Below are positions 1,430 to 35,490 of a stretch of DNA of 35,641 nt, in pieces. Position 1 is the first letter of the stretch. Every line of letters begins with the position of its first letter. Both the position numbers and the translations under genes were made by a program. The notes beneath the pieces were generated by a model, which was given only the letters and a program-made list of their open reading frames with translations, had not been told where the DNA came from and did not search any database. The stretch is from a virus, in the UHGV virus genome UHGV-0194711; one strand, 5' to 3'.

Positions 1430-1643
1430 AGTCCTGTGCCTTCCGCCGGTCGTCTTTGATTTTGAAATACAAATTAGTGAGGTAGGTAAGCAGCCCAAAA
1501 ACAATACTGGCTAGTACGCCAATAGCCGCCCACTGGCTGGGGCTTACCTTATCGAGAAGTTGCAGCAGCCAGTAGCTCCCGCTGACAGTGGATGTGATGT
1601 ACGACGTGCCAGCCGCCACATCCGGTAAATTCTTCATTCGCAT
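1413..1643 (-). CDS. Class II holin / pinholin (phage 21 S-like) with dual-start motif
   Basis: Protein MRMKNLP...[48 protein letters not shown] closely resembles S21 from memory. M1-R-M3-K dual start, two TM segments, overlaps endolysin start. Confidence 0.8.
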
Positions 1644-1699
1644 GCCTTACCCCCATGGGGATCACTATGTGGAATGATGCGAGGGTAAGGCGAAGCTAA

Positions 1700-1714
1700 G
1701 GTCGGAATCCTGAC
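1700..1714. promoter_or_regulatory. Copy A of recurring inverted-repeat motif GGTCGGAATCCTGAC, ~57 bp upstream of holin start
   Basis: One of four copies (1700, 4603, 6536, 17304) of a 15-16 bp conserved element, each immediately upstream of a late gene. Confidence 0.5.
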
Positions 1715-1725
1715 TAAATGAAATT

Positions 1726-1996
1726 CTATATTACGAGTTTGCTTTTAAGTGATTCCTCTGCCTCTTCAAGAGGGCTTCCAGACCCAGAGTAGACAAAAGA
1801 ATGGGTAAGCTCCCCACTGGAAAGACAACCATCAATGCTAACTTTAAATGAAACAGTCGCTGTTCCATTATTTAGCGATATTAACGATACAGCCTGGTAT
1901 TCAACCTCAATCGAAGTATCTTCTGGTGGCATCCATACACCTAGCGTTGGGTATGCTATAGATTTCCCTATAGTCTGCGTCACTCTGAAAGTCATA
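1726..1996 (-). CDS. Hypothetical protein (low-GC moron immediately downstream of tailspike)
   Basis: ORF with GAGG RBS 7 nt before ATG at 1996 (MTFRVTQTIGK...); AT-rich relative to surrounding genes; no recognisable motif. Confidence 0.5.
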
Positions 1997-2002
1997 TTTG
2001 CC

Positions 2003-4522
2003 TCATGAATTAAAAGGAACAACATAATCAAAAGTACACTGGAGAGTGAAATCAAAAGTACCAGCTGCTTGAGAATATATTTCTTGGGCTGACGATTTAA
2101 TAATCGTCATTTGATTTGTCCCAGCAGGAACAAGCGGCATAACTAAAACCCCTGTAGCCGTACTAAGAATTATGCTTCCTTTAGACCCACCCTCCTGTAT
2201 AGAAGCGGCTGTAAAAGGAAGACCACTAATTACTATGGCGCCCGCAGTGCTAACCAGTAAAGAGGTTGATCTGACCCTTATATCGCAACGAACAACATCA
2301 CCAAACCGACGGTAAATTCCAATAATGGATGATGGTATTACGCTTGCGCCGCCAATTGTAATAGTTGGTGCGAATGTGCCATAAAGATACTTAAACTGAG
2401 CAGCATTACCACCGGGAAAAGCTATTGGCGGCATATAGGCATCATTTCGATTAAAAACATACTTATCGGATAAATTTGTTCCGTTTAACTCCTGAAGACC
2501 GAAAAGACGATAGTTTGAATTATCTCCAAGCTTTCTTTGAGCAACTATATTCTCACCGGCACCGATTCTTGTGCCGTTAAATTCATTAACTGGGGCAGCC
2601 TGAACCGCGCCACCTTTTACAATATCAAGGGCGAAAATATTTCCTCTTGTTGCCATCGCTGGAAATGTTGAAAGAGATGGTTCGTAGGGATCAACATTAT
2701 TAACATTAAATCTATTTCCAGCAACATCACCAAGGCCATACTTGATGATTCCTACCCTTTCCAGTATAAGAGTCCTTATTTTACTGTTACCAACATATGA
2801 TTTAAATCCGTCAACGAATTGAGCAGAGTGGTAGAATGGCGTTCTTGGAGACCACAGCACTTTAGCCTCACCAATATTGCAATGCAATATCTCCCTTCCC
2901 GGAAGTGAAATAATAGTTCTTGCGCGCCCAGCTATACCTCTATAGGTATCAACTGGGTAAACCCCATTCTGCTGATTATTTGACAACCGACCACCGCTGG
3001 CCGTAGGCAAGCAGTTTGCAGACTTGAAAACATACGTATCAAACCAAGTGTCAAGAGCGGCATATGCTGGATGTGTCCAGTCCATGCCGGTATCACCATA
3101 ATAATGAAACTTGTCTACATGGTACGAATCATTCCATCCCGCCCGATGAATATCTGATGCCGGGTACGGCGGAAGGTACTGAGACGCGTATGCATGATTT
3201 CTCGTTAGCCAGCGCCCGCCAAAAACAGGGCCTGTAATATTATACCAATATAATGTCAGCCCAGTTTGCGCCAGAGAATCAGATCCTTGATAACAAGCAG
3301 GAATGGCACACCCTGAGTACATCATATTATTTTCTACACAGCGGTTTACAGTCCCGTCTACCCATTGCCCAATAAAGAATCCGCTAATCCTGAAATCAGA
3401 AAGGTGATACTTTATGTATTGATCTGGTCCGCTGTCACCTGCGATGTATAGACCCATGGAAGATGTATGATCCCATGGTCCCGCAGTTTTTGAAAAATTA
3501 CCAATAATCCCACAATTGTGTTGGTTTTCACCAACAATCATTGAATCATCATAAACACGCAGTGCTGCTTTTGCCTTAACTGGTATTTCAGGAGCAATAT
3601 TTGAATCACCGTTCCCTATCCACCCTGGGTATACAGTCCCATCGTCGAATGGCAAATTAAACTCTATCGGTGAAGATATGCACGGATACATTTTAGTTAA
3701 ATATACCGGAAGGTTATTAGCTTTTCCGTAATCTATAGCTGCCTGTAGAAATTTAGTTGCATCAGCAGTGATGCCGTGAATATATCTTTCACCATTAATC
3801 CTTATCATTTCAGGGGTTACGTATTTTATTGCATCTTCAACGGTGCCTCCAGTAAGAACCCCTATATGCCCGCTACCTGTCGGTTTGGCATACTCAATCA
3901 TTACATCTGCTGCACTTCCACTCGAAGGCAATACCATCAATGGATTGCCATTATTATCCATTGCAACGATTTTATTTTTTCGTTCTGCAATGGAAGGTAA
4001 CGGTGTGATGCTAGACTCCGGAACGCGTAGAGTACGAGCTAGATTAATTTTTCCATTTTCAATTACAAATTTTTTAGTAGCTGCATCCTGATCGTTAACT
4101 GGATCGGCCAGATTTGCTATCCGGTAGCCGTTAGCGTTGAAAGGTCCACCGCCGAACAGCGGGCGACTTAGGGCCACTCCGAGATAAATAAACGCGCGCT
4201 GAATAGCCATCCAGAGACGGTCAAAATCTTTGTTAACTGTATCGGCCAGCAGGTCGCCGTTGTCCTGGTAATCAGTGAGCCTGTAAGTCGGCGTTACACG
4301 TTCAAAAATGACTGTAGCGCCATTGGCCGGCGCGGTCAGAAAAGTAACTTCGCCACCGCCAGTATTACCCACACCAGACACTGTATAGCCGGACGTTACT
4401 TCGTTGCCGTTGATTGTGACCTGAATATCGCTGGCGCTGATCAGGTAAAACTCATAGGCAAAGACAGTCGTCAGCCCGTTGGCGGTATAGATGTTATAGG
4501 GTGTCTGGTTCGGTACCGACAT
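2003..4522 (-). CDS. Tailspike / tail fibre protein with T7 gp17-like N-terminal adaptor and divergent low-GC receptor-binding (likely depolymerase) body
   Basis: 839 aa. N-terminal ~150 aa carry the GYRIANLADPVNDQDAATKKFV motif, similar to T7 gp17 (GRRIVNLANAVDDRDAVPFGQL). The remainder is Gly/Asn/Tyr-rich with GC dropping markedly after ~nt 4100. Confidence 0.8.
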   Translation of the reverse strand: MSVPNQTPYNIYTANGLTTVFAYEFYLISASDIQVTINGNEVTSGYTVSGVGNTGGGEVTFLTAPANGATVIFERVTPTYRLTDYQDNGDLLADTVNKDFDRLWMAIQRAFIYLGVALSRPLFGGGPFNANGYRIANLADPVNDQDAATKKFVIENGKINLARTLRVPESSITPLPSIAERKNKIVAMDNNGNPLMVLPSSGSAADVMIEYAKPTGSGHIGVLTGGTVEDAIKYVTPEMIRINGERYIHGITADATKFLQAAIDYGKANNLPVYLTKMYPCISSPIEFNLPFDDGTVYPGWIGNGDSNIAPEIPVKAKAALRVYDDSMIVGENQHNCGIIGNFSKTAGPWDHTSSMGLYIAGDSGPDQYIKYHLSDFRISGFFIGQWVDGTVNRCVENNMMYSGCAIPACYQGSDSLAQTGLTLYWYNITGPVFGGRWLTRNHAYASQYLPPYPASDIHRAGWNDSYHVDKFHYYGDTGMDWTHPAYAALDTWFDTYVFKSANCLPTASGGRLSNNQQNGVYPVDTYRGIAGRARTIISLPGREILHCNIGEAKVLWSPRTPFYHSAQFVDGFKSYVGNSKIRTLILERVGIIKYGLGDVAGNRFNVNNVDPYEPSLSTFPAMATRGNIFALDIVKGGAVQAAPVNEFNGTRIGAGENIVAQRKLGDNSNYRLFGLQELNGTNLSDKYVFNRNDAYMPPIAFPGGNAAQFKYLYGTFAPTITIGGASVIPSSIIGIYRRFGDVVRCDIRVRSTSLLVSTAGAIVISGLPFTAASIQEGGSKGSIILSTATGVLVMPLVPAGTNQMTIIKSSAQEIYSQAAGTFDFTLQCTFDYVVPFNS

Positions 4523-4539
4523 ACGAGGAACTCCGGCGG

Positions 4540-6150
4540 CTAGTAATCTACGGCGACCATGTGATCGCCATCATTTGGTTGCCAATGTTCCCGCGCCTGT
4601 GCGGTCGGAATCCCGACCAATTTACCAATGCGCACTGGTGTTGAGCTGATTGCGCCAGAGCCAGAGTCGATAAAGTCATCTGGCTGATTAGTCAGCGCCG
4701 GGTTAAAGTCGCGCATCTGGTCATACATTGGGCCGTCGAGCACGTCGGTATGCGCCCAGAGGAAGCGCGACGACAGCGGCGCTTCGAATGCATCGAGGAT
4801 GCGCTTTTGTTTATTGGTCACGCTGAATTCTTCCCGTACGCCGCAGCCGGTACCCTTTAGTGCCTGAATCAGCAATTTCCCGGCAAAGCTGCCCGGGCCG
4901 TTCACCTCGACGCAGACCAGCGGGATCTGGTATTTAAGCACCAGCTCTTTAATCTGCATCACCTGACCGCCGGTGATTTTGTCGTTGTCGTCGAATTCCG
5001 CCAGTTCGCCCGTAAGCCCCTGGCAAACATGCCAGTACAGATGCCCGCGTGCGTCGGTGAAAATCAGAGAGAACGCCGAGGCGTCGGCCTTAACTTTGCC
5101 GGTGGCCACATCCCACCAGGCAACAGCACCAACAATTTGCGTCTGGCCAAGCCACATCGAGCAGGAGCGGTTCGCGTACCGGATTTCAGGCTGTACGTTG
5201 TATTCGCGTATGCGGTCGGGATCGAGACGAACCTCGCCAACCGGTTTACTGTGCAGCTGGTACTGGCTGTCCCATTCGTTAATTGTGCGAGTCTCGCGAC
5301 GGCGCTTTGTCATTTCCTCCGGAGTGAACCTTTCTGGCCATTCACAATCGGCGTAACAGTCAACCGTGGTGCCGGGAGCCTCGGCAAACTCGATACCGTC
5401 ATCGTTAAGACGATAATCAACACCTTCAACGAGCAGTCGCGCGCCAATGTGAATACCGACGAAAACATATTCCGGCCGGAACGGTAACGAGTAACGGCTC
5501 GCAGTGGCCTGTTTTTCCTCGATTCTAAATTCTTTACCGAATAGTTTGATGGTCAGACAGTCGGCGCCCATAGATTCAACCTCATCGTAAAGGCTATCGT
5601 GGGTATGCGGCGTGCCGATAAACAGCTTTCGCCCGCCGGGGACAAGAATGTGTGTCTGTTCACCGAGACGATAACGCAGCTTTTCCCGCGCCTCTGGCGT
5701 CTGGATATTGCGGGGTACTTCTACGTCATCGTTCTGGCATTCATCAGCGCGGGCCGAGGTAACGTTAGAGAGGATCCCCTTTGCGTACATGCTGCCGTTA
5801 CGCATATCCAGAGAGCCGTTAACCCACCACTGTTCAACGGTTCCCTGTCCGTCCGGTAGCATGCCTTTGGTCAGTGGGTGATTGCGTAAAACGTTCTGCG
5901 TATCGCGGCTGGTTTTGTACGCGGTGCCGTCAGCTTCAGACTGGTGAAGAATGCGGTACTGGCGGTTCTGGTAATATCGCCATGCGTTATACACCGCCAG
6001 AATGGTAGATTTACCAAAGCCACGAAAACAGCGAAGCACCGCGAGATCCCCGCGGTGTTCCAACCAGTGGCAGGCTCGATAATGGCAGTCGGGAACCTCC
6101 CACCCCATCCGCTCCGCCCATATGATGAAAAAGGCGACGAATGAAATCAT
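4540..6150 (-). CDS. Terminase large subunit (T7 gp19-like DNA maturase B)
   Basis: 536 aa. LRCFRGFGKSTILAV Walker-A region aligns with T7 gp19 LQAFRGIGKSFITCAF from memory. Size and position next to terS are consistent. Confidence 0.85.
   Translation of the reverse strand: MISFVAFFIIWAERMGWEVPDCHYRACHWLEHRGDLAVLRCFRGFGKSTILAVYNAWRYYQNRQYRILHQSEADGTAYKTSRDTQNVLRNHPLTKGMLPDGQGTVEQWWVNGSLDMRNGSMYAKGILSNVTSARADECQNDDVEVPRNIQTPEAREKLRYRLGEQTHILVPGGRKLFIGTPHTHDSLYDEVESMGADCLTIKLFGKEFRIEEKQATASRYSLPFRPEYVFVGIHIGARLLVEGVDYRLNDDGIEFAEAPGTTVDCYADCEWPERFTPEEMTKRRRETRTINEWDSQYQLHSKPVGEVRLDPDRIREYNVQPEIRYANRSCSMWLGQTQIVGAVAWWDVATGKVKADASAFSLIFTDARGHLYWHVCQGLTGELAEFDDNDKITGGQVMQIKELVLKYQIPLVCVEVNGPGSFAGKLLIQALKGTGCGVREEFSVTNKQKRILDAFEAPLSSRFLWAHTDVLDGPMYDQMRDFNPALTNQPDDFIDSGSGAISSTPVRIGKLVGIPTAQAREHWQPNDGDHMVAVDY
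4603..4618. promoter_or_regulatory. Copy B of recurring inverted-repeat motif GGTCGGAATCCCGACC, inside the 3' end of terL, ~80 bp upstream of tailspike start
   Basis: Perfect 6 bp stem / 4 nt loop palindrome; same core as copies A, C and D. Confidence 0.5.
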
Positions 6151-6488
6151 TTTTTCCGCTGTTGTATGCGTTCGATAACTTCCTGTGCTGCCCGTTCAGC
6201 CGCAGATACCTGTTGCCCCAGGCGGAATGCTTCATCGTCCGGATCCTCGCCGGGTTTAGGCGTCCCCCCGCGCGTATGCATGCCAATCAGCGAATGGACT
6301 TTTACCAGCAGCGTCAGCGATGCGGCCGCGTTCTTCTTATGCCAGTACCGATCACCGCGTTCCTGTTTAGTGTGCTTTGTGATTTCCTTCCCTGCCCCCG
6401 GCCAGTTATCCGGATCGGCTTCTTCCAGAACTACGTCGGTGAGCTTATCGCTAAGAGCAGTAAGGCGAGTTTTGTAATCTGAATGCAT
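6147..6488 (-). CDS. Candidate terminase small subunit (DNA maturase A)
   Basis: 113 aa charged protein immediately upstream of terL with ATGA stop/start overlap (translational coupling). Positional inference only. Confidence 0.45.
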   Translation of the reverse strand: MHSDYKTRLTALSDKLTDVVLEEADPDNWPGAGKEITKHTKQERGDRYWHKKNAAASLTLLVKVHSLIGMHTRGGTPKPGEDPDDEAFRLGQQVSAAERAAQEVIERIQQRKK

Positions 6489-6535
6489 AAAAAAGCCCCG
6501 TGTTTATCCATAGGGCTATGATGTGTCGGCTTAGA

Positions 6536-6550
6536 GGTCGGAATCCTGAC
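6536..6550. promoter_or_regulatory. Copy C of recurring inverted-repeat motif GGTCGGAATCCTGAC, ~48 bp upstream of candidate terS start
   Basis: Same 15 bp core as copy A, with matching flanks (tagtcaggattccgacct on the transcribed strand). Confidence 0.5.
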
Positions 6551-6641
6551 TATTTCTAATCTAATTATAAAATTGATCGCTGTATGGTTTTTTGTTAAAT
6601 GTTTCTTATACCTAACACTCAGCTAAAGGCGTTTATTTTTC

Positions 6642-7076
6642 ATGAAAAAAATTGGTCTAATTTCGATATTAGTAATGATCTCACATCCGGCATTCGCAGC
6701 AGATAAGTGTAAACCAAACTTAACTGAGTTTGATGTATGCGAACAGGCTCAGAAAATCGTCACTCAGGTACGCCCCAGACTGCCCTTAACGTTATCAGAA
6801 AACGTAATAATGAAAGATGTTTCTGCTGATGGAAACAAAATAATCGCGCAGGTAAGGCTAGGCGTAACCGAAGAAGAAATGCTGGCTACCGCTTCAGAGA
6901 CCCATACTTCAATCGACGTTGCTAAATCTCGAATGGATGAAATAACAAAAAATGGGTTATGCACGAATAAAAATCCACTGGGTTCATTCATTAGATTAGG
7001 TGGGGAGATGCAATATGTTTACACCTACCCCTCCGGAACATTCTTCAATGCAGTTACTGTTAGTTCGTGTAACTAG
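6642..7076 (+). CDS. Secreted/periplasmic hypothetical protein (signal peptide, four Cys), opposite-strand low-GC moron inside the virion module
   Basis: MKKIGLISILVMISHPAFA signal peptide with AFA-A cleavage-like site; ~40% GC; opposite strand to all flanking structural genes; promoter-like TTGATC-N16-TTAAAT upstream. Confidence 0.65.
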   Translation: MKKIGLISILVMISHPAFAADKCKPNLTEFDVCEQAQKIVTQVRPRLPLTLSENVIMKDVSADGNKIIAQVRLGVTEEEMLATASETHTSIDVAKSRMDEITKNGLCTNKNPLGSFIRLGGEMQYVYTYPSGTFFNAVTVSSCN

Positions 7077-7080
7077 GCTA

Positions 7081-9984: not shown

Positions 9985-12695
9985 TATTCATTACTCCATG
10001 AAAAATAATTTTTCGTACGTTCAAGTCGCTCATCATGCAAACGCTGGTACTGCTCATCCAATGCTCGATGTTTCGCTTTAAATCCGCGAATATCTTTTCC
10101 GCGCGAAATTTCATCCTGTTCTTTCTGCTCTCGTTCCTTCTGCATTTTCTGGTAAGGCCCCCATTCCTCTAGGGATGGCCTCCACCGCATTTGCCTACCA
10201 AATTTGTCGTTATAAGGCTGTGCCTTTTCATTACCATCTTTATCCTTAAAGCGAATCCAAATTGCATAATCTTTAATTCTTGGAGTATATACATCAGGCA
10301 CAATTTCCAATTCACCACCAACTTTAGACTCGGGGGTGTTTGAGATAATATTTGTTGCAGTTCCTGACGTGATTCCTAACTGCGTTGGGCTGGTAGAGAT
10401 CTCCTCATTACGCTCGCCATACATTAGTTCCTCTTTTTTTTCTTTCCACAGTTCAGCCTGCCAACCTGACGGACCAAAGTTATATAGTGCTTCTGGTGCA
10501 TATTTCATGAACTGGGCCTTGCCGTTCACTTCGCTAATGCTCCAGTTACGAGAGATTTGAGTGTTGGTCATTTTTTTGGCAATTTCAGAATTCCCACCAG
10601 AATTTCGATAGTTGATATCGTAAAGGGACTGGTAGTCATTTCGAAAATTAACTGCATCAGTTGTTGTATCGCTTGCCTTTGGATCAATTCTGAACCACTG
10701 AGCCATACTATTTCGAGCTGAATCCATAGCACTATCTCGCTCGCTTTTATATTCTTTAGTGCTCTGCGTCGAAGTTAACTGATTTTTTAATGCATCGTTC
10801 TGGTTATAGGTTATATTCTGTGCCTGTTTCACTGCCTCATCAGAAGCCATACCAGCTTCGGTCAATTGCTTAATTGTCAGATAAAAACTTTGTATATCTT
10901 TTGGCATATCACTGACGTTAGAAGATTTAGAGTCGTAAAGCCTATTGAATATTTCAGCGCCTTGCTTCACTACATCTGAGCTACTGGAGCGGGAAATAGC
11001 ATTGAGCTGTGATGTTACCTGCGACGGAACAATGCCGGTCTGGTTTACCTGCTGTACGATAGCATCGTGGGTGGTTGCATCGTTAATGCGGAAATTAAGC
11101 GCCGATGGCGTATTGTCCGCCGCCCTCTGCATAGATTTATTGCTCGGGTCGAGTTTCTCGCCGGAGAGCAGCGCATCGTTAAAGCGGGCGGAGTCGCGCT
11201 GCGCCTGAATATTGGCGTTGCTCTTCTGCACCAGCGCGCTAAGTTTGCCGTGTGCATCAAGTTTTAGCGCAAAATCGGGATCGTTTGCCTGCGGCTTCAC
11301 CTTCGCCAGTTCGGCCTGCTGTTCTGCCGGGGTGGCGTACTGAATAGCCTGGAAGGTTCTGGCGTTATCAATCGCGATATCCAGCTGCTTGACCGCTGTT
11401 TGCCCCTGCTCACCATACGCAAACAAAATGGTGGAGGCGTTCGGCATAGCATCCGGCACCTCGCCGTTATACAGCTGCGCCATTGTATTATTGAGAATCG
11501 GGTCAATCTGCTGGCGCAGCGCCGTACGCTGCTGCCGGATCTGCGCTTCGGCGATATTGTCGATTTTGTTTACTGCTACCGGGTCGAGACCGGTTTTATT
11601 TTTGTTGTAGCGGGACAACCAACCGCGCGTTTCTGCGGGTAGCTGCTTAACGAAATCCGCCATCGAGATTTCGCCTTTGCGCGGGTCGCCCACTTTGGCG
11701 ATCAGTTTATCGACGTTACCCATCCCCCAGTTATACGCGGCCCCGGCCAGTGGTTCTGACTGGTATTTTTTACTGAGCTGCCCGGCATAATCACGCGCCA
11801 GCTGCGCATGCTGCACAGGATCGTCCGGGTTGTATTCCACGCCACGTTTAGCCGCCAGTTCTTTCCCTGTGTCCGGCATCAACTGAAATTCACCCTGCGC
11901 GCCAGCGGGCGATGTAACAAGACTACCATCCGCATTGCGGTGCTTACCACCGGACTCCACCAGGCCAACGGCGCGCATATCGAGTTCGCCGGTGCTGCTG
12001 TTAATCAACGTAAAATCGCCATTCAGCCAGCCAGTGGGATTGGTTACCGCGTAGTTCTGCGCGCGCTGCTCCAGCGCTTTTTGGTTCGCTTCTGATACCG
12101 CCGCGTCGATGCGCTCCTGCGGCCAGCCACGCGCCTGGCCATACATCTCGATCGAGTGTTTACGGGCGCTACGTATCAGCCCTGCCTGCATCGGATTATC
12201 GTATGCGCTGGCCTCTTGTTCGACGGAAGTGGTCACCGTCGCATTAAGCTGCTGCCGCTGGGCCTCATCCGTCTGTGCACGCTCGAAACCGCTGTAGGTA
12301 CTTGTCCGGCGTACCTGCCCTGCTTTCCACTGCGCATCAAAATAGTTTAACTGGTTGGGCGGTACGCGCTTCCGCGCTTCCTCGTAATCGCCAGCGTCGG
12401 CCTTATCCATATCGGTTACCACACCGGACGATTTAAAGCCCTGACGAGTGACCGTGGCGCCCGTCTCCGGGTTTTCCCAGCGGTCATTAGATTTAGCTTC
12501 CAGATCAGTCAGAATCGCCTGCGTGGCTGCCACATCGGCTTTATCCTGCTCATGCTGTACTTGTTCTGCTACCTGCCCTGTAGCGGTCCCAAAACCAGAC
12601 ACCGCATTGCCTATAGTGCCTACATTGCTAACAGCGACACGCGTCTGCTGTGCCTGCGGTGTCACATTACCAAAATTACCCGTTGGAATTCTCAC
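9984..12695 (-). CDS. Internal virion protein with lytic transglycosylase (SLT) domain
   Basis: 903 aa. SLT signature ES...S.AGAQGEFQLMP and AAYNWGMGNV around aa 240-330, as in the peptidoglycan-degrading T7 gp16 family. Confidence 0.75.
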   Translation of the reverse strand: MRIPTGNFGNVTPQAQQTRVAVSNVGTIGNAVSGFGTATGQVAEQVQHEQDKADVAATQAILTDLEAKSNDRWENPETGATVTRQGFKSSGVVTDMDKADAGDYEEARKRVPPNQLNYFDAQWKAGQVRRTSTYSGFERAQTDEAQRQQLNATVTTSVEQEASAYDNPMQAGLIRSARKHSIEMYGQARGWPQERIDAAVSEANQKALEQRAQNYAVTNPTGWLNGDFTLINSSTGELDMRAVGLVESGGKHRNADGSLVTSPAGAQGEFQLMPDTGKELAAKRGVEYNPDDPVQHAQLARDYAGQLSKKYQSEPLAGAAYNWGMGNVDKLIAKVGDPRKGEISMADFVKQLPAETRGWLSRYNKNKTGLDPVAVNKIDNIAEAQIRQQRTALRQQIDPILNNTMAQLYNGEVPDAMPNASTILFAYGEQGQTAVKQLDIAIDNARTFQAIQYATPAEQQAELAKVKPQANDPDFALKLDAHGKLSALVQKSNANIQAQRDSARFNDALLSGEKLDPSNKSMQRAADNTPSALNFRINDATTHDAIVQQVNQTGIVPSQVTSQLNAISRSSSSDVVKQGAEIFNRLYDSKSSNVSDMPKDIQSFYLTIKQLTEAGMASDEAVKQAQNITYNQNDALKNQLTSTQSTKEYKSERDSAMDSARNSMAQWFRIDPKASDTTTDAVNFRNDYQSLYDINYRNSGGNSEIAKKMTNTQISRNWSISEVNGKAQFMKYAPEALYNFGPSGWQAELWKEKKEELMYGERNEEISTSPTQLGITSGTATNIISNTPESKVGGELEIVPDVYTPRIKDYAIWIRFKDKDGNEKAQPYNDKFGRQMRWRPSLEEWGPYQKMQKEREQKEQDEISRGKDIRGFKAKHRALDEQYQRLHDERLERTKNYFSWSNE

Positions 12696-12700
12696 GTCAC

Positions 12701-13189
12701 TTACTCCGCATATAAACCGTATTTGCCTGTTTTTGCTTTTTTCCAGCCGCTGTATGCAGTTCCGCCAGCACTAAGTAATGAACTGCCAGCACTAATATTC
12801 CCCGCTGTCGCCGCATTACTGCCGCTGATCCTGTCGGCTTGTGCCTGCGCCTGCAGGCGATTAGAAGAATTCACGCCATTAAGGATTGTCTGATAGGCGT
12901 CCTGCTCCGCATCCCCTGCAATACCTGACGTGACACGGAGCGCCGTTCCCTCTCCCGTCTCAACGCCTGAAGCTGCCAACGCAGCATTGGCGGCAGATGC
13001 CTGCTGGCGACCGGCTTTACGAATACGCTCCGCTTCAACTTTTGCCGCTGCTTTTGATGCTTCGGCGTCGGCTTCAGCCTGCGCGGCCTGATAGTTCGCC
13101 ATTTTCTTTTGCTGCTGGCCGCTGGCCACTGCCCCGCCAGCAGCGAGAACCGAAGAAGCCACCAGTGCGATTTCAACACCTGTACACAT
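12701..13189 (-). CDS. Small internal virion protein (T7 gp14-position), membrane-associated
   Basis: Start taken at internal MCTGVEIALVASSVLAAGG (TM helix) 2 nt after the GNAT stop; Ala/Gln-rich coiled region. Track ORF extends to 13324 but that would overlap the GNAT gene. Confidence 0.5.
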   Translation of the reverse strand: MCTGVEIALVASSVLAAGGAVASGQQQKKMANYQAAQAEADAEASKAAAKVEAERIRKAGRQQASAANAALAASGVETGEGTALRVTSGIAGDAEQDAYQTILNGVNSSNRLQAQAQADRISGSNAATAGNISAGSSLLSAGGTAYSGWKKAKTGKYGLYAE

Positions 13190-13191
13190 CG

Positions 13192-13644
13192 TTAAACCTC
13201 CATCGAATAAAGCAGCCCGGTACGTTGCAGACCGAGGCGGGAATAAAGCTGGCCAGTACGTTCGGCATGGACGCCCGTGGTGATCCCCATGTTGATCACT
13301 GCGGCGCCGTGTTCTTTCGACCATTCGATAAATGCACGGGCCAGCCGTGGGCCCGCGCTGCCGCCCCGGTACTCCGGAGCGACGAACAGGCCATATTCAA
13401 ACGCCATCAACTGGCGGGAAAAAAACTGCTCCGCGATGCCGCCGCCGAGCCAGCCAATCACCAGGCCGTTTTTCTCTGCCACCAGCACGCATCCGGCGGG
13501 GGAATAAATCAGGCTCTCAGCCAGTTCCGCGCATTTGTCCGCGTCAAAGGGTGAGTTTTCGGAATAGCGGGATTCCAGGTACATCCGGGTTCCCAGTTCG
13601 ATAAGCGCCGGAATATCACCGGCGGTTGCATTACGGATCATCAT
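13192..13644 (-). CDS. GNAT-family N-acetyltransferase embedded in the virion module (T7 gp13-position)
   Basis: 150 aa with GNAT motif A (VAPEYRGGSAGPRLARAFIEW) and typical fold length; stop/start overlap with tail tubular B. Confidence 0.7.
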   Translation of the reverse strand: MMIRNATAGDIPALIELGTRMYLESRYSENSPFDADKCAELAESLIYSPAGCVLVAEKNGLVIGWLGGGIAEQFFSRQLMAFEYGLFVAPEYRGGSAGPRLARAFIEWSKEHGAAVINMGITTGVHAERTGQLYSRLGLQRTGLLYSMEV

Positions 13645-15635
13645 TAGCCCCCGTTGCTGGAGAACGTGAAAATAATCGCCAGCAGATGAAACGGCAGCGG
13701 CTGGCGTTGCTGAATAATCAAAGTGTCTTCCCCGCGCTCCCAGCCAAGTTTCCCGAAATAATGATCACCGGTGAAAAGTGGCGCGGGCTGGTTAAGGATT
13801 TTTGGGCCGAAGGTACGGAAGGGGATCACCTGACCGTTGCACTCCGCGCCAGTGGTTTCCATAAAGCGGAGCGTGACTTCGCTGGTACGCTTGCGGGCGT
13901 TCTGCGTGGTGCCTTCGGTCGTTGAGATTTCCGGCGTCAGCGTCTGGATGGTGGTTTCGTAATGCAGGCCTACTTCGATTTTTTTCGCTTTGCGGCTGAG
14001 AGTGATTTGCCCGTCTGTTACCGTTGCCTGCGGCATCACGGAACCATCGGCCACCACATCAACCGTTTTTCCATTGAGGTGAGAAAGACCTGTCCACGTG
14101 GTGGCACCTTCTGAACTGGAGCCGGTTACTGCGGAATCGGTATTCAGGTTGCTGTCGAATACTTCAACATAACGAACGGTCTGGCCGTTAACTTCCCGGC
14201 GCACCAGAACATAAATCACGTCGTCGCTTTCCGAGGGAATACTCGCCACCGATTCAAAAACGCCATCGGTGATCTGGCGTGACCATGCGACTACATCCTG
14301 CGCCCGGTCGATACCCATCGTCACCAGTACGCCATCGGCGCGGATCAGCCACACGAACGCATCAGGCTGTTGCTGATACGCCATATCGAGGACGCCGCCG
14401 GCCGTGATGTGTTCGGCCAGCACCGTTAAATCATTGGCGGAATACGAAACGTAGCTGTCGGGGTCATACGCCACGGCATACAGTTTTTTCCCGGCACGCT
14501 GGATAAACATAATTTCGGTACCGACACGAACCGGGCGAATGCTGTTGCAGCCGTACGGGCTGGGATTTTTTACCGAAATATTGGTCGGGGTGATCGCCGC
14601 GTCGCTGCCGGCAGTGATTGTAAACTCGCCGCCGTACGTCAGCGCGATAAGCGTATTCATCTGCGCCAGATGCACGATCGGGTTTAACTGGTCAGAAGAC
14701 AGCGTAAAGCTGATCGCGTCGTCGTCGTCCGTTCCCAGCTCAAACGACAGGTAAACGCCGGTTTCGCTCCACCAGATTGTTTGCGGGTACTGCGGGGAAC
14801 CAGCCAGAACCAGCCGCTGCTGGTACAGCGTCACCGCGCCGGGGTAGCCAAATTCCTCCGTCCAGACAGTATCTTCACGTGTCCAGGCTCCGGGGGATGC
14901 CGCCTGCGTTGCGCTTAAATCGGTGCGGATGGTGCCGACAGCAATCTGCGCGCTGGTGATGCTCTTAATTAGCACCAGACCGCTGTTAATGCGAACGTAC
15001 GAACCAACGTCCTCCGATATCCAGCCGGTACCAGTAAACGCGGGGGAATCGTCATCATCTGCGGGTTCGGCATCACTGAGCGTCAGCGTGATTTCTGAGC
15101 CGACGAATTCTTTAACCGATGGCTTACACCATTTCTCCGGCGTGTCGCGGATTTCGTCGAATGGTTCCACGATAAACGGCGCGGCTTCCAGTACCCAATC
15201 AGTTTGCCCCTTACGCTGCAAGCGGTGCGGCGGGACGCTCTGGTGCACTAAAAACATCGTGTCAGCGCCCTGCACGTAATTCACCTCAGACAACATATCG
15301 ACGGTGTACGGGCTGGCGATTTCATACGGGGTATTATCGTCGTTTACCAGCTGCCGGCCGTTCTGGTAGATGCGCAGATACCCGTCGCCAAATTCGAGCA
15401 TGTACGCCTGCGAGCGGTTAAAGACGTAGGGGATCAGTCGTGCTGTCCGGTCACCATATTTAGCGGCAGCGGCAAAGCGCGTACCCGGTCGGCGAACGAC
15501 ACCGCCCTGCACCACGCACACCGCGTTTTCGATAATTTTTGCACCGTTGGCATAGCGGGCGATATCAACACGCCCCATCAGGCGCGGGGAAATTTCACCC
15601 GCGGTAAAATTGGTTTTTATTAGGTTCGCGCGCAT
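13644..15635 (-). CDS. Tail tubular protein B (T7 gp12-like)
   Basis: 663 aa; N-terminal G-x-IS-x-x-P...Y..G...RRP pattern resembles T7 gp12 N-terminus; follows tubular A with overlapping start/stop. Confidence 0.65.
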   Translation of the reverse strand: MRANLIKTNFTAGEISPRLMGRVDIARYANGAKIIENAVCVVQGGVVRRPGTRFAAAAKYGDRTARLIPYVFNRSQAYMLEFGDGYLRIYQNGRQLVNDDNTPYEIASPYTVDMLSEVNYVQGADTMFLVHQSVPPHRLQRKGQTDWVLEAAPFIVEPFDEIRDTPEKWCKPSVKEFVGSEITLTLSDAEPADDDDSPAFTGTGWISEDVGSYVRINSGLVLIKSITSAQIAVGTIRTDLSATQAASPGAWTREDTVWTEEFGYPGAVTLYQQRLVLAGSPQYPQTIWWSETGVYLSFELGTDDDDAISFTLSSDQLNPIVHLAQMNTLIALTYGGEFTITAGSDAAITPTNISVKNPSPYGCNSIRPVRVGTEIMFIQRAGKKLYAVAYDPDSYVSYSANDLTVLAEHITAGGVLDMAYQQQPDAFVWLIRADGVLVTMGIDRAQDVVAWSRQITDGVFESVASIPSESDDVIYVLVRREVNGQTVRYVEVFDSNLNTDSAVTGSSSEGATTWTGLSHLNGKTVDVVADGSVMPQATVTDGQITLSRKAKKIEVGLHYETTIQTLTPEISTTEGTTQNARKRTSEVTLRFMETTGAECNGQVIPFRTFGPKILNQPAPLFTGDHYFGKLGWERGEDTLIIQQRQPLPFHLLAIIFTFSSNGG

Positions 15636-16198
15636 CAGAACCTCGATTCATAAGTTGGATAGCCGTCCAGCGTTTCCGGCGGTTCTTCCTGTCCGTCGAT
15701 AGATTTGGCCTGGCGAAGAAGGAATGCAGCTTCCTGCGTCAGACTGTCGCGCAGACTCGCGGAGCCGGTGACGGCGTACGCCAGCTTTGCGGCCATGAAC
15801 GCTTCGGCCAGATTGACCAGCGACGAATCCCACGTCGATTCATCCTCGTTACGAAACAGGTAGCGCAGATAAATTACGTTCTGATTCGCCAGCAGGCGGT
15901 TTCCTTCAACGCGGTACCCGATATCCTCATACTCACGGCCAACGGACAGGATCCGGATTAAATCGCCCGGCAGCGGGAACTGGTAGCCGAAACCAAACGC
16001 GGGCGCGGTGCTGGACGGTGAGAGCACGACGCGTTTTACCGCGCAGTTCCATGGATGTTTTCGCAGCAGGTCATTGCGTACGGTAGGGTAAATATTGGAG
16101 CACAGGCGGGCGTGTTCGGTCGCTTCGTCGAAGCTGTTAATGGGATGAGCGCCGAGCGCCAGCAGTACGTTAGAACAGATAGAGATACTGGAAGCCAT
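15635..16198 (-). CDS. Tail tubular protein A (T7 gp11-position)
   Basis: 187 aa, directly after the capsid terminator and before tubular B. Positional and size analogy to T7 gp11 (196 aa); sequence similarity not obvious by eye. Confidence 0.55.
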   Translation of the reverse strand: MASSISICSNVLLALGAHPINSFDEATEHARLCSNIYPTVRNDLLRKHPWNCAVKRVVLSPSSTAPAFGFGYQFPLPGDLIRILSVGREYEDIGYRVEGNRLLANQNVIYLRYLFRNEDESTWDSSLVNLAEAFMAAKLAYAVTGSASLRDSLTQEAAFLLRQAKSIDGQEEPPETLDGYPTYESRF

Positions 16199-16213
16199 AG
16201 CCTTACCTCAGAT

Positions 16214-16241
16214 GAAAAAAGGCCGGGAGGGATCCCCCGGC
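16214..16241 (-). terminator. Rho-independent terminator immediately downstream of the major capsid gene (analogous to T7 T-phi)
   Basis: On the transcribed strand GCCGGGGGATCCCTCCCGGCC hairpin followed by TTTTTT; located between capsid stop and tubular A start. Confidence 0.6.
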
Positions 16242-16257
16242 AAAGGTACCAGCGGCT

Positions 16258-17163
16258 TTATGCTACAAAATCGATGGCAACGACTTTTTTCTCGTTGGCG
16301 CGGCCAGCGCCATAGGACGCATCAACGGAAATCTGGATGGTGTTATTTTTATCGCGACGCGGGCCGATATCGACGTTGTACTCAGCGCCGGTACCGAAAT
16401 GCACAGCGGACTTACACCAGGCGGCGGCGGTTTTGGTGGTGACGTTTTCGGCAGTGGCAGAATCCAGCTTCTCGTATGCCAGCCAGTTAAAGCCCAGCCA
16501 TTTAGACGACACCGAACCTTCCTGAAGCATTTTCACCGCCATAAAGTCGGCGCTGGTCAGCGTGGTATCGCTGAGGATCTGCGTCAGCATGTCGGCGTTG
16601 TACGTCATGTACAGCTCTTCGCCGTTCTGCTCGTCACATTCGTTACGGCGGAACATCGCTTTTGCTGCGATCAGTTTGGCTTTGGTCATGCCAGTACCGC
16701 CAGCAACGATTTTCTGCGAGGCCGGGAGGGTAACGGATGCATACGCGCCGTTGTTCTCAGTCTTACGCAGTACCGCATCGAGCAGCGCGCGGTAAATTAC
16801 ATCGTCTTTTTTGCGGTTGGCGGCGGACAGGGTGAGCTGCAAATACGGCCCCTGCGGGTCGGCAATCAGCTTGCGCAGGTCGCGTTTCTCGACCGGGACG
16901 AAAACGCCGTAGTCGGCCATCAGCGCATTACGGGTACCGGCTTCCGGAACATCCCAGACGGTATCACCGAAACGCGTGGTGATCTGGTTCATCTCAATGG
17001 TACCCATATCGTTGATGGTGAACGACGCACCGGTGATGCTGCCACGGTCATGGACAGCCGCTTGCAGGCGCGAATCCTTTTGCTGTGCAGCAATTTCGAA
17101 AGAATCATGAAACTGCGTAACAAACGCAGCGGTGATCATGTTCTTGTTTGCATCAAATGACAT
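16258..17163 (-). CDS. Major capsid protein
   Basis: Start at MSFDANKN (ATG 17163 with GGAG RBS); ~300 aa; position after scaffold and before T-phi-like terminator; abundant-protein composition. Confidence 0.7.
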   Translation of the reverse strand: MSFDANKNMITAAFVTQFHDSFEIAAQQKDSRLQAAVHDRGSITGASFTINDMGTIEMNQITTRFGDTVWDVPEAGTRNALMADYGVFVPVEKRDLRKLIADPQGPYLQLTLSAANRKKDDVIYRALLDAVLRKTENNGAYASVTLPASQKIVAGGTGMTKAKLIAAKAMFRRNECDEQNGEELYMTYNADMLTQILSDTTLTSADFMAVKMLQEGSVSSKWLGFNWLAYEKLDSATAENVTTKTAAAWCKSAVHFGTGAEYNVDIGPRRDKNNTIQISVDASYGAGRANEKKVVAIDFVA

Positions 17164-17303
17164 AAAAATCACTCCAGTAAAAAATCGCCTGCGGGGTGTC
17201 GGTTTCCCGGCCCAAATCTGCACAATGCGGTTGGCGCTGGCGCATTGCGGGAGAAATCAGGTATCCGGCGTCCCCGCCGGGCTGGTTATGGAGTGATTGT
17301 TAT

Positions 17304-17319
17304 CGAGGTGCGCGGTCGG
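17304..17319. promoter_or_regulatory. Copy D of recurring inverted-repeat motif GGTCGGAATCCCGACC, ~140 bp upstream of capsid start
   Basis: Same core and flank type as copy B; sits between the moron terminator and the capsid gene, where the strong phi10 promoter lies in T7. Confidence 0.5.
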
Positions 17320-17330
17320 AATCCCGACCA

Positions 17331-17358
17331 AATAAAAAAGCCAGCGGGTTAGGCTGGC
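17331..17358 (-). terminator. Rho-independent terminator after the 138-aa moron gene
   Basis: Transcribed strand GCCAGCCTAACCCGCTGGC hairpin followed by TTTTTTATTT. Confidence 0.6.
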
Positions 17359-17382
17359 TTCTGGTTGTGACTGGTCACGGTG

Positions 17383-21226: not shown

Positions 21227-21523
21227 TCATTGTGTGTTGCCCTTCTGGTCAGTTTCCCGACCAAAAACAGGGCGGCGGAACGTCCACCACTGGCGGTAAA
21301 GCACTGTGGGGAGTTTTTTACGGTCTGAGCTGGTAGCCAGACACCAGAGAGCAATCAGCGCTTCACCGTGACCATGGCGAGGCTCTGATCCAGATTTCCA
21401 GCCGAGGACGGCGGATTTTGAAACGCCAAGTTCATCGGCGATTTGCTGAGTGGTGAGATTTTTTCGGGTCAGGTCGGTAATGACTCTGAACCAGTCTGTA
21501 CGGAAGGTGGCGACCAGCGGCAT
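21227..21523 (-). CDS. Helix-turn-helix DNA-binding protein (possible late regulator)
   Basis: LTTQQIADELGVSKSAVLGWKSG HTH motif; 98 aa; first gene upstream of the virion module. Confidence 0.5.
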   Translation of the reverse strand: MPLVATFRTDWFRVITDLTRKNLTTQQIADELGVSKSAVLGWKSGSEPRHGHGEALIALWCLATSSDRKKLPTVLYRQWWTFRRPVFGRETDQKGNTQ

Positions 21524-23499: not shown

Positions 23500-23838
23500 C
23501 TATGCTGACAGTTTGGTTTCGTGCCACCCTCGCGTTACCCAGCATTGCGAATCACCAGCACACGGGCAGGAGGTGATCGGCAGCGTCTCACCGCATTTTC
23601 TACACAGACGTTTGCTGATCGATTTGATGTGGCCACTAAGCCGCGCATCATCCTGACGGATCAGCATAGCGATGTACTCGGCCAGTTCGTACGGTTCACG
23701 CCCCGGACGCCGGGCGGCGCAGTTATGCGCCAGCATGTCCAGTTCCTGCGTATCGAGAACCAGCTCAATTTTGCGGTTGCCGGCGGCAGATTGCCGCGCC
23801 CTCTGCGCGGCTTTACGTTCTGCGGATGATTTAGCCAT
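23500..23838 (-). CDS. Hypothetical protein with C-terminal Cys cluster (possible zinc-finger regulator)
   Basis: 112 aa; CRKCGETLPITSCPCAGDSQC cluster; last gene of the early-right operon. Confidence 0.5.
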   Translation of the reverse strand: MAKSSAERKAAQRARQSAAGNRKIELVLDTQELDMLAHNCAARRPGREPYELAEYIAMLIRQDDARLSGHIKSISKRLCRKCGETLPITSCPCAGDSQCWVTRGWHETKLSA

Positions 23839-29017: not shown

Positions 29018-29464
29018 TTAAACGCTGGTCAGGCGCTGTGTTTCTCGCATAGCTTGCAATGCTCTGGCGACTTGCTGCGGCCCGTCTCTGGCGTCGAGTA
29101 ATAACGCGATAATCGCCGCGGCAAACTCACGAATGGCCACACAAATTAAATACTGGGTGGACATACCCAAGCGCGCGTAACGTTCTGCCGGCAGCGCCGC
29201 TTCCATCGCTTTGACCAGCGCCAGAGTTTTGGCTCTCGCGGCTTTGGTCTCGCCTCGCAACCAACGAAAAATTTGTTGGCGGTTGTTGTTGATTGCCCGC
29301 CAGTCGGCGTTTCCATCTGCATCTTCGATCTGGTGCAGCTTCAGCGAACCGGTATTACCACCAAGACGAAACCACATGCGGCTTATCTCGATAGCAACCA
29401 GCTCCTGCCCGCTTTCCGCTGCCCAGTTAAAGATCTCTCGTTTAAGTTCTTCGAGGTATTCCAC
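29018..29464 (-). CDS. YdaT-like regulatory protein (Rac prophage CII-analogue family)
   Basis: Resembles E. coli Rac YdaT by memory (conserved ...QQIFRWLRGETK... block); sits directly after the Cro-like gene as in Rac. Confidence 0.5.
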   Translation of the reverse strand: MEYLEELKREIFNWAAESGQELVAIEISRMWFRLGGNTGSLKLHQIEDADGNADWRAINNNRQQIFRWLRGETKAARAKTLALVKAMEAALPAERYARLGMSTQYLICVAIREFAAAIIALLLDARDGPQQVARALQAMRETQRLTSV

Positions 29465-35433: not shown

Positions 35434-35490
35434 ATCGCTATGCGTTCGTTGAAAAATCATCTTCGGACGCATCTTCGGAAAGGAGAGTTT

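Follow-up and report, generated by a model that had tools for sequence, protein, structure and literature searches.

Lambda cII, an HTH protein of about 97 aa, activates the promoters PRE, PI and PaQ, which have no usable -35 box; its half-sites, about 10 bp apart, lie on either side of the -35 region, and the other face of the DNA stays free for sigma region 4. cII binds as a tetramer to TTGC-N6-TTGC direct repeats and serves lysogeny genes. The C proteins of restriction-modification (R-M) systems and the lambdoid cI/c2 proteins are small XRE-type dimers whose palindromic operators adjoin or cover the -35 box, and they activate via region 4 of sigma-70. In phage late promoters the dyad is located at approximately -22 in P1 (a 9-bp inverted repeat), at approximately -30 to -55 for Mu C and at approximately -55 in P2. 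The late promoters of P1 are turned on by Lpa (PMC8198154).

Here we analysed a stretch of 35,641 nucleotides (UHGV virus genome UHGV-0194711, in the following the window), which contains a T7/BPP-1-like virion module without an RNA polymerase of its own. Five copies of a palindromic motif are located in front of late genes. They are probably (at approximately 0.68) activator-dependent sigma-70 late promoters of a Klebsiella-type temperate podophage prophage, and they appear to be activated by a small DNA-binding protein of the phage, so far uncharacterised, whose gene immediately precedes the first promoter.

As with lambda cII, there is a small phage HTH protein (98 aa), no -35 box, and a pair of half-sites approximately 10 bp apart that, in the geometry we infer, straddle the -35 region. 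Unlike in the cII system, the site is an inverted repeat, the predicted fold is XRE/Cro-like, a Pfam scan gave no Phage_CII match for the protein, and five late lytic operons are concerned. Membership in the cII system was rejected because of the inverted-repeat site and because the CII-like protein of this phage is encoded by a separate gene (29018-29464). With P1 Lpa, Mu C/Mor and P2 Ogr/P4 Delta the window shares dispersed late promoters with a -10 element but no -35 box, a dyad, and the proposed use of an early or middle phage protein together with host sigma-70. The dyad, however, would be centred here at approximately -32.5, one helical turn further upstream than in P1, and Lpa, Mor/C and the zinc-finger protein Ogr are set apart from the Cro/C1-type HTH protein, which has no Pfam, NCBIfam or PHROG match to them. 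The closest PDB folds of the modelled 98-aa protein are R-M C proteins and lambdoid cI/c2; these autoregulate one operon, whereas the 98-aa protein would drive a late regulon of five promoters. The T7 class III promoters phi10 and phi17 occupy corresponding places in the virion gene order, ahead of the capsid and the tail fibre, and terminators likewise flank the capsid gene. In contrast to T7, no phage RNA polymerase is present, and a palindrome with a downstream sigma-70 -10 element is found in place of an asymmetric 23-bp promoter with its own start site.

The motif and its -10-like hexamer

A pattern search of the window yielded four exact plus-strand matches to GGTCGGAATCCYGAC (1700-1714, 4603-4617, 6536-6550 and 17314-17328), compared with a mean of 0.08 in dinucleotide-preserving shuffles, none of 100 of which reached 6 matches. 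All four had been noticed in a sequence-only reading, which had placed the fourth at 17304-17319; this was a 10-bp slip whose end cuts the motif, and the copy is located at 17314-17329. Its two flank subtypes were recovered by the pattern matches: the perfect 16-bp palindrome GGTCGG-AATC-CCGACC is found in copies B (4603) and D (17314), and a T variant in copies A (1700) and C (6536). Its placement of A before the holin gene, B in the 3′ end of terL, C upstream of terL and D before the capsid gene also holds. Overlooked were the minus-strand orientation, the -10-like element and a fifth, degenerate copy (21247-21262, GGTCGGGAAACTGACC on the minus strand), which lies within the 3′ end of the 98-aa HTH reading frame and ahead of the first late gene. 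Every phage gene between approximately 500 and 30500 is on the minus strand, and the motif therefore has to be read as its reverse complement, AWWTR-GTCRGGAWWCYGAMC. The extended pattern GTCRGGAWWCYGAMC-N13-A-N3-T has five matches in the window, all five on the minus strand, with 0.00 expected.

Exactly 12 bp downstream of the palindrome lies a -10-like hexamer (nAnnAT), whose A at -11 and T at -7 are present at 5/5 window copies. Conservation in related prophages, a check that the sequence-only reading had proposed, was found for 127 distinct copies in related viral contigs and prophages, upstream of the capsid, holin, terS-like, first late and tailspike genes; variation within the motif is under-sampled in this set, because most viral loci were fetched by the exact motif. 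Among these copies, A28 and T32 of the hexamer are both kept in 126 of 127, and the spacing between palindrome and hexamer is unchanged in 126 of 127. An A and T at the mirror side of the palindrome occur in 3/127 copies, and the hexamer pair occurs in 7/31 copies from unrelated contigs. The conserved flanks are asymmetric, with a short A/T tract upstream and the hexamer downstream, and the palindrome consists of two GTCRG half-sites with centres 10 bp apart.

No -35 box was found (the sequence 17 bp upstream of the hexamer reads GGATTC), nor an extended -10 element (positions 24-25 are not TG), and upstream of the palindrome the related copies have no conserved -10-like element, only AWWTR. 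Just these two positions, -11 and -7, are fixed in the weak sigma-70-type hexamer. Such a hexamer at a fixed distance, together with a poor -35 region and no extended -10, is the pattern of a class II-like activator-dependent promoter. A generic sigma-70 scan of the late region showed no excess of promoters (15 found, 18.3 expected). If the hexamer is the -10 box, the palindrome lies at approximately -40 to -25 with its centre at about -32.5; the half-site centres would then be at about -37.5 and -27.5, and both major-groove half-sites would straddle the usual -35 reading place of sigma region 4.

Predicted late promoters and terminators

The predicted elements are listed in the order of transcription.

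21227-21523, minus strand: Cro/C1 (XRE)-type HTH gene, 98 aa, proposed late-gene activator; last gene of the early operon, its 3′ end holds promoter E
21229-21266, minus strand: predicted promoter E (first late operon); A/T tract, degenerate palindrome GGTCGGGAAACTGACC at 21247-21262, 12-bp spacer, -10-like CACAAT at 21229-21234; predicted start at about 21222, ATG of the first late gene at 21199
17336-17362, minus strand: intrinsic terminator, 10-pair stem and T run; ends the first late operon, directly upstream of promoter D
17296-17333, minus strand: predicted promoter D (capsid); palindrome GGTCGGGATTCCGACC at 17314-17329, -10-like AACAAT at 17296-17301; predicted start at about 17289, capsid ATG at 17162
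16222-16241, minus strand: intrinsic terminator, 8 pairs (7 GC) and T run, just past the capsid gene
6518-6555, minus strand: predicted promoter C (113-aa terS-like gene and terL); palindrome AGTCAGGATTCCGACC at 6536-6551, -10-like CATCAT at 6518-6523; predicted start at about 6511
4585-4622, minus strand: predicted promoter B (tailspike), in the last terL codons; palindrome GGTCGGGATTCCGACC at 4603-4618, encoding V-G-I-P-T, -10-like GAACAT at 4585-4590; predicted start at about 4578
1682-1719, minus strand: predicted promoter A (holin-lysozyme-spanin lysis cassette); palindrome AGTCAGGATTCCGACC at 1700-1715, -10-like TACCCT at 1682-1687; predicted start at about 1675, holin ATG at 1643

The predicted 5′ UTRs are sensible, judging by the distance of SD and ATG from the hexamers. 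In the capsid leader, hairpins with compensatory changes begin approximately 8 nt past the predicted start. Copy C precedes the 113-aa gene, which is located upstream of terL, and copy B lies 81 bp ahead of the tailspike ATG (4522). Where promoter B overlaps the terL coding sequence, the synonymous sites of the motif and the hexamer T are invariant, and the flanking codons vary at their third positions. Promoter E has the same architecture in relatives, and the copy of L002 at this place is perfect.

The capsid gene is bracketed by promoter D upstream and the terminator at 16222-16241 behind it. This order of terminator, promoter, capsid gene and terminator, together with the positions mirroring T7 class III promoters, could indicate relic or retargeted promoters of a phage-type single-subunit RNA polymerase or of a phage sigma factor, as the sequence-only reading had considered. 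That reading had also stated that no phage RNA polymerase is encoded, and PHROG and Pfam scans confirmed this: neither a phage RNA polymerase nor a sigma gene was found among the ORFs, and all large ORFs were assigned to exonuclease, replication, internal virion, tail, portal and terminase families. T7-type promoters span -17 to +6, whereas the element here is a 16-bp palindromic block with an A/T tract and a sigma-70-type -10 hexamer 12 bp on, at fixed spacing; a T7-type phage-polymerase promoter was rejected on these grounds. The motif is under strong purifying selection and is thus not a relic. This origin is very improbable.

For activator-dependent promoters, the 98-aa protein would be made from the last gene of the early operon and bind the palindrome as a dimer. 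The bound dimer would recruit or stabilise host sigma-70 RNA polymerase at a -10 element that is otherwise inactive. Five units would thereby be switched on: the head-assembly operon, capsid to internal proteins, terS-terL, tailspike and lysis.

The 98-aa HTH protein and its co-inheritance with the motif

The 98-aa protein, which the sequence-only reading had named as a candidate for EMSA, was also singled out by comparative genomics. In the window and in L001, L002 and YeP5 its gene immediately precedes the first motif copy, despite early modules of two kinds: lambdoid RepO/DnaB in the window and L001, a DNA polymerase/primase in L002 and YeP5. The HTH gene is inherited together with the motif and the virion module across unrelated early modules. 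The second candidate of the earlier reading, a Cys-cluster protein (23500-23838), is missing from L001 and L002, both of which keep the motif, and is therefore not the cognate factor. Thirteen further loci were fetched via the 98-aa protein alone, independently of the motif. The canonical motif is located 0-60 bp downstream of the HTH gene in 8/13 of them, with an intact hexamer in 7 of those 8; all 8 carry virion-module genes, truncated in one (L128). In three loci (L132, L133 and L136) no motif is found behind the distant HTH homologue, which speaks against the protein as cognate activator. In L135 and L137 the recognition helix lacks the conserved Lys and the motif is different as well; this observation is anecdotal.

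The protein belongs to a family of at least 278 clusters (50% identity) at E<=1e-10 without a Pfam or NCBIfam model; Pfam HTH matches (HTH_3) were sub-threshold only. The core of its AF2 model has four helices with a pLDDT of approximately 90. Top Foldseek matches were P22 c2, R-M controller proteins, SinR, CapH, HipB and 434 Cro, with a probability of approximately 1.0 but weak E-values (0.03-0.3), which count against the assignment. The closest PDB folds (C.BclI, C.AhdI, C.Kpn2I, P22 c2 and lambda cI) share only 13-22% sequence identity. The model therewith suggests a Cro/C1-like fold, as in dimeric operator binders.

Such a fold also fits a protein that represses or times promoters driven by something else, the palindromes being its operators. 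An operator over the -35 region is the typical position for a repressor, -32.5 is an unusual centre for an activator dimer, the protein is a member of PHROG 16553 with the label 'transcriptional repressor', and near folds include the repressors P22 c2, SinR and HipB. However, promoters without -35 box and extended -10 and with a minimal -10 offer a repressor little basal activity to act on; the gene is part of the early lytic operon, expected to be kept silent by the prophage repressor in the lysogen; and the 12-bp spacing to the -10, fixed in 126/127 copies, suggests contact with RNA polymerase. We regard repression as unlikely, and activation is the direction of regulation that these data favour.

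Slightly less likely than repression is that a conserved host factor binds the motif, or that host RNA polymerase reads it with an alternative sigma factor, and that the HTH protein is unrelated to it. The 15-mer is almost invariant across phages with differing hosts and with capsids only about 50% identical, as a host factor would explain, and GGAAAC/GGATTC loosely resembles GGAAC, the -35 motif of ECF-type sigma factors. Against this, the -10, with A at -11 and T at -7, resembles that of sigma-70 and not that of ECF factors, motif and HTH gene co-occur and move jointly between early modules, and in L135 and L137 helix and motif changed together, which is anecdotal.

The proposed pair of HTH activator and palindrome might be general: with odds somewhat better than even, temperate relatives of T7-like podophages use, in place of a phage RNA polymerase, a portable and hitherto undescribed 'late transcription module', comprising a new family of XRE-like activators of about 80-100 aa and promoters with a 16-bp palindrome for the -35 box. 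Either the protein would sit on the palindrome across the DNA helix from sigma region 4, or it would take over the role of region 4 altogether. Some of the promoters are overprinted on coding sequence (the C-termini of TerL and of the candidate activator itself). A literature search for the motif gave nothing relevant and no published data on transcript starts or activator dependence; late transcription in these prophages, which lack the RNA polymerase typical of T7-like virion modules, is so far undescribed. The promoter model offers five predicted start sites and names a candidate activator from an uncurated protein family, and the simple motif annotates late operons in hundreds of prophages. 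Should the dimer indeed straddle the -35 region, this would be a second, sequence-unrelated case of the lambda cII activation mode, here for late genes. As a compact orthogonal pair of activator and promoter it could be of use in synthetic biology, and it could offer a means to control the induction of Klebsiella prophages. The prophage family is very common in genomes of Klebsiella, Raoultella, Enterobacter, Serratia, Yersinia and E. coli, and its first late protein falls into 646 clusters at 90% identity.

Hairpin and antitermination readings of the palindrome

With its 6-bp GC-rich stem and 4-nt loop, the motif could also be an RNA or extruded DNA hairpin that serves polycistronic late transcripts as a signal for processing, stability or antitermination; T7 has RNase III sites between its late genes. 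If so, pairing should be kept. Stem pair 3/10 is GC in 87 copies, A·C in 34, G·T in 4 and A·T in 2, and pair -1/14 is GC in 87 and A·C in 40, so that uncompensated A·C mismatches occur at these two positions in 27% and 31% of the copies. The RNA of neither strand retains pairing in every variant: the fifth copy of the window pairs on the minus strand only, copies A and C on the plus strand only, and the outer pair of the YeP5 copy is G·A. No Rfam family matches the motif, and an RNase III-type or structured RNA hairpin was rejected. A hairpin would also leave the conserved asymmetric flanks unexplained, and if the promoter model holds, transcription would start downstream of the motif. This is the least probable of the readings considered. 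Of the three options raised by the sequence-only reading, RNA processing hairpins and phage-polymerase promoters find no support, and the evidence favours the remaining one, in which a late activator binds these sites at positions equivalent to promoters.

An intrinsic terminator was likewise rejected for the motif, since the T-rich tract of the coding strand precedes the hairpin and GC-rich sequence follows it; a terminator was called on copy C only, weakly and on the plus strand. A separate hairpin with a U-run is located just before the terS-like gene, the sole case of a terminator-like hairpin behind one of the five window copies. Because this hairpin begins directly after the hexamer, predicted start C lies inside it, which is a point against the promoter model. 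The same arrangement of hairpin and U-run is found before five late genes of the Acinetobacter phage TPWB-05.

Lambda Q acts on RNA polymerase paused at a -10-like site, and by analogy the hexamer could be a sigma-dependent pause element behind an unrecognised promoter, with the palindrome as loading site of a Q-like antiterminator; the hairpins before the terS-like gene and in TPWB-05 would fit. The region upstream of the palindrome has only AWWTR and no conserved -10-like element; four of the five window copies have no terminator-like hairpin behind them, and at promoter E the distance from hexamer to SD and ATG is too short for a leader with pause and terminator. PHROG and Pfam scans found no Q family among the scanned proteins, nor is a Q-family protein conserved with the motif. 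Lambda Q-type antitermination in the strict sense, with a single late promoter and terminator, was rejected in view of the five dispersed sites, and the Q-like variant is about as improbable as a phage-polymerase origin. TPWB-05 is a related phage with a different upstream motif, which counts against the promoter model.

The prophage and its relatives

The DNA is a prophage of ~35.2 kb with direct repeats at 140-283 and 35475-35619 as borders, into which the 3′ portion of a tRNA gene falls (tRNA fragment at 35567-35641). attL and attR are marked by directly repeated segments of 78 nt (90% identical) and 62 nt (100%), and integration is in the 3′ end of this tRNA gene; in E. coli, the homologous prophage L001 adjoins yecA. 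Matches of 90-95% to nearly every E. coli genome may be due to the tRNA-bearing flanks.

The minus strand holds all phage genes that lie between ~500 and 30500, and the motif therefore has to be read as the reverse complement. The early region, with genes for a CII-like protein, RepO, DnaB, NinB, HNH and methyltransferase, is lambdoid; its opposite strand encodes an exonuclease, a Gam-like protein and the integrase. Between the two early arms, which diverge from a regulatory region, TGACAGNCGGGAAAGACCG occurs three times (30358-30548); these copies are probably operators of an immunity repressor/Cro pair. The late genes form a T7/BPP-1-like podophage module.

Order of the late genes
First half: portal, Bbp19-like protein, scaffold, capsid, tail tube A and B
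Second half: acetyltransferase, internal virion proteins, terS-like, terL, tailspike, holin, lysozyme

Two E. coli prophages are close relatives, L001 with 83% identity across 76% of the query and L002 with 79% identity in the virion module alone; the Yersinia phages YeP4-6 are likewise related. The early module of L002 and YeP5 is wholly different from that of the window and is of the DNA polymerase, VapE primase and SNF2 type, which is present in BPP-1 and APSE (PMC8579659).

Motif copies and the adjoining hexamer

A pattern search of the window identified exact plus strand matches to GGTCGGAATCCYGAC at 1700, 4603, 6536 and 17314, with 0.08 matches expected in shuffled window sequence. The four inverted-repeat copies of the sequence-only reading thus exist, but the fourth was placed 10 bp off at 17304-17319 and is actually located at 17314-17329. 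Its two flank subtypes were borne out: copies B and D are perfect 16-bp palindromes, and A and C have a transition in one half-site. With three mismatches permitted, an additional copy was found at 21247-21262 (copy E), which on the minus strand reads GGTCGGGAAACTGACC.

L001 has the motif at four homologous places and a degenerate fifth copy; L002 has all five, the fifth being perfect and directly ahead of the first late gene. The YeP5 record contains four copies, three of them the variant GTCGGGAAACCGAAC. An exact 15-mer scan of IMG/VR matched at least 120 stretches, and the matches listed are mostly contigs of 35-37 kb, whose fragments hold 2-3 copies each. A literature search found neither the motif in a phage context nor any account of late promoters in YeP4-6 or prophages like them.

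When the copies were aligned on the coding strand (numbered on the minus strand from the G of GTC as 0), conservation reached past the palindrome on both sides. An A/T tract precedes it, with A at -5, T at -2 and R at -1, and a hexamer follows exactly 12 bp 3′ of it, at positions 27-32, with A28 and T32 near-invariant and A or C at 31. Sorting by the protein encoded downstream (capsid, holin, terS-like, first-late, tailspike) gave 127 distinct copies; A28 and T32 are both present in 126 of these, the equivalent bases on the mirror side of the palindrome in three. Among copies in unrelated contigs, 7 of 31 have both bases. Sigma region 2 recognises a sigma-70 -10 element through the flipped-out bases at -11 and -7, and we take A28 and T32 to be their equivalents.

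Motif copies in the window, read on the minus strand, with their hexamers and the starts predicted by taking T32 as -7
Copy A, 1700, minus strand: hexamer TACCCT, predicted start ~1675
Copy B, 4603, minus strand: hexamer GAACAT, predicted start ~4578
Copy C, 6536, minus strand: hexamer CATCAT, predicted start ~6511
Copy D, 17314, minus strand: hexamer AACAAT, predicted start ~17289
Copy E, 21247-21262, minus strand: hexamer CACAAT, predicted start ~21222

Hexamer position 27, the -12 equivalent, is random, the motif copies have no TG at the extended -10 position, and there is no -35 box, GGATTC being found at the expected place; the predicted promoters would therefore be very weak unaided. The sequences TAATAT/TATAAT 12 nt 5′ of copies A and C were rejected as -10 elements, since they are missing at B, D and E and unconserved in relatives. 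Canonical sigma-70 promoters were likewise rejected, because in a generic sigma-70 scan they were not enriched in the late region. The central GATT of the palindrome is highly conserved and asymmetric, and in ~90% of copies it faces the hexamer in the same orientation; speculatively, this could reflect a contact with a direction, perhaps one made with RNA polymerase. Predicted promoter B lies within terL, where the motif codes for V-G-I-P-T. There, none of the synonymous sites of the motif varies, nor does the hexamer T, which is at a third codon position, and adjacent codons vary freely at third positions, which indicates that selection acts on the DNA itself.

A candidate activator and competing explanations

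We propose that a dimer of the 98-aa HTH protein (ORF 21227-21523, minus strand, the last early gene) is the activator of five late promoters; transcript starts, binding and the sign of regulation are predictions from sequence. The protein was found by tblastn in every long enough related locus, including L002 (60% identity) and YeP5 (51%). Its gene is always directly 5′ of the first motif copy, and L002 and YeP5 share no early genes with the window. Binding of the motif by a host factor or an alternative sigma is an improbable alternative.

A protein-anchored scan with one genome per species gave 13 loci. The canonical motif is located 0-60 bp 3′ of the HTH gene in eight of them, the hexamer being intact in seven of these, and all eight have virion-module genes (the module is truncated in the locus L128). 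One of the eight, a Zeimonas (Burkholderiales) MAG, has a protein of 40% identity and carries the variant GTCGGGATTCCGTTC twice. One further locus, on a short contig of Burkholderiaceae, has a variant that diverges more but keeps the correct spacing to the hexamer; in three of the 13 the motif was not found within the retrieved sequence. The Ventosimonas locus has a single occurrence of GTTGGAAATCCAACC-N12-CATACT ahead of the first late genes, with a symmetric change in both half-sites. Covariation of protein and operator is anecdotal only: GTTGG-N4-CCAAC occurs once in locus L131, and variants occur in loci L135 and L137.

The HTH protein matches no Pfam or NCBIfam family. Its AF2 model shows a Cro/C1-type helical bundle (core pLDDT ~90), and the nearest solved structures, with weak E-values, are P22 c2, R-M controller proteins, SinR, CapH and HipB. 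A profile search at E<=1e-10 yielded 278 clusters (50% identity), nearly all of 75-130 aa. Promoter E sits in the 3′ end of the ORF (GGT CGG GAA ACT GAC = G-R-E-T-D), and at 21229-21262 it is overprinted on the C-terminal tail (F-G-R-E-T-D). According to a protein alignment, 84-aa family members end earlier and have their promoter in non-coding DNA, so that the promoter sequence would seem to have produced the tail as a side effect.

With T32 taken as -7, the half-sites are centred at about -37.5 and -27.5, and at this distance of 10 bp a dimer would lie on a single side of the helix. The HTH dimer would leave free, on the opposite side, the major groove at about -33, which is the usual binding place of sigma region 4. 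Produced at the end of early transcription, it would recruit the sigma-70 holoenzyme to five otherwise silent promoters, and the strict 12-bp spacing argues for direct contact between the HTH protein and RNA polymerase. Lambda cII has the geometry predicted here at PRE, PI and PaQ, but it is a tetramer of another family on direct repeats. Phage activators of dispersed late promoters without a -35 box (P1 Lpa, Mu C, P2 Ogr, lambda cII) are a well-known concept. What would be new are the activator family, the operator, the position near -32.5 and the putative role as functional replacement of the phage RNA polymerase in a T7-like virion module.

The main caveat is that a site over the -35 region is classically repressive; nevertheless, the palindromes are unlikely to be repressor or timing operators, since nothing recognisable is present to repress. 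The idea that they are relic or retargeted phage-RNAP promoters lost ground, as no RNA polymerase or sigma factor was found among the window ORFs in PHROG, Pfam and NCBIfam scans, and we consider it improbable. The Cys-cluster protein (112 aa, 23500-23838), also suggested as the factor, is missing from L001 and L002, both of which bear the motif. Two proteins encoded 3′ of promoter E, the first late protein of 146 aa and one of 73 aa, were rejected as well: they are acidic or low-complexity, less conserved than the HTH protein, and have no DNA-binding family and no Pfam or NCBIfam match.

RNA structures, leaders and terminators

An RNA processing hairpin had also been put forward as a possible role of the motif. 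Uncompensated mismatches are frequent: stem pair 3/10 is GC in 87 copies, A·C in 34, G·T in 4 and A·T in 2, and pair -1/14 is GC in 87 and A·C in 40; the outer pair of YeP5 is G·A. Copies A and C would pair in plus strand RNA only, copy E of the window in minus strand RNA only. The motif has no Rfam match, the flanking tRNA being the sole one. Such a pattern is as expected of independent, presumably protein-bound GTCRG half-sites and not of a selected stem, and under the promoter model the palindrome would lie upstream of the start, which also counts against a hairpin; this explanation is thus improbable. The T-run is on the wrong side for a terminator. That the motif is a Q-type loading site with a pause element is likewise improbable.

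Promoter E would give a UTR of ~23 nt including an SD sequence, and promoter D a capsid leader of ~127 nt (17163-17289, minus strand), the capsid start being the ATG at 17162 and not the mechanically listed GTG at 17223. Terminators at 17362-17336 and 16241-16222 bracket the capsid gene. Two similar hairpins, each followed by GAYAMCC, are found in the leader, the first starting ~8 nt past the predicted start.

Hairpins of the capsid leader
~17265-17281, minus strand: hairpin 1, GCCCGGCG-GGGA-CGCCGG-AUACCUG
~17198-17212, minus strand: hairpin 2, GGCCGGG-AAA-CCGA-CACCCC

The arrangement is kept in relatives with only ~50% capsid identity. RNAalifold analysis of 11 diverse leaders showed compensatory double changes in 6 of 11 pairs, which indicates that the region is expressed as RNA. 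The leader matches no Rfam family; its hairpins may influence how stable the late mRNA with the highest expression is, or how well it is translated. In L137, a Burkholderiaceae MAG, a ~24-nt unit with CCGGACACCGCCGG is repeated ~100 nt apart 3′ of the variant promoter (3787-3910) and is reminiscent of the capsid-leader hairpin-GACACC units.

At 6489-6517 (minus strand) a hairpin AGCCC...GGGGCU with a U6 run adjoins the terS-like ATG (dG -11.5, z -2.8). It begins directly after the hexamer, so that the transcript of promoter C would start within it; under this start model, it could fold and terminate in read-through RNA only. In the distant Acinetobacter phage TPWB-05 (L124) no equivalent of the palindrome was found; instead, CACCCAACAAAC precedes the leaders of five late genes, which consist of hairpin, U-run and ATG.

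A 144-aa gene of unassigned function (phrog_8772; 6642-7076, plus strand) is located between the internal virion protein gene and promoter C and is absent from L002. It has a sigma-70-like promoter, CTGACT-16-TAAAAT (6546-6573), with a -35 box that is part of palindrome C, and binding at C could thus silence this gene while turning terS on. A mirror-side promoter for it was rejected, since it was found in the window and one close relative only and the hexamer is unconserved elsewhere.

The holin start (1637-1665, minus strand) is a dual start, Met-Arg-Met (ATGcgaATG). A CCCC-loop-GGGG hairpin 5′ of it overlaps the SD sequence, and in relatives the stem is kept and the loop is variable. This arrangement resembles the 'sdi' holin/antiholin start control of lambda S.
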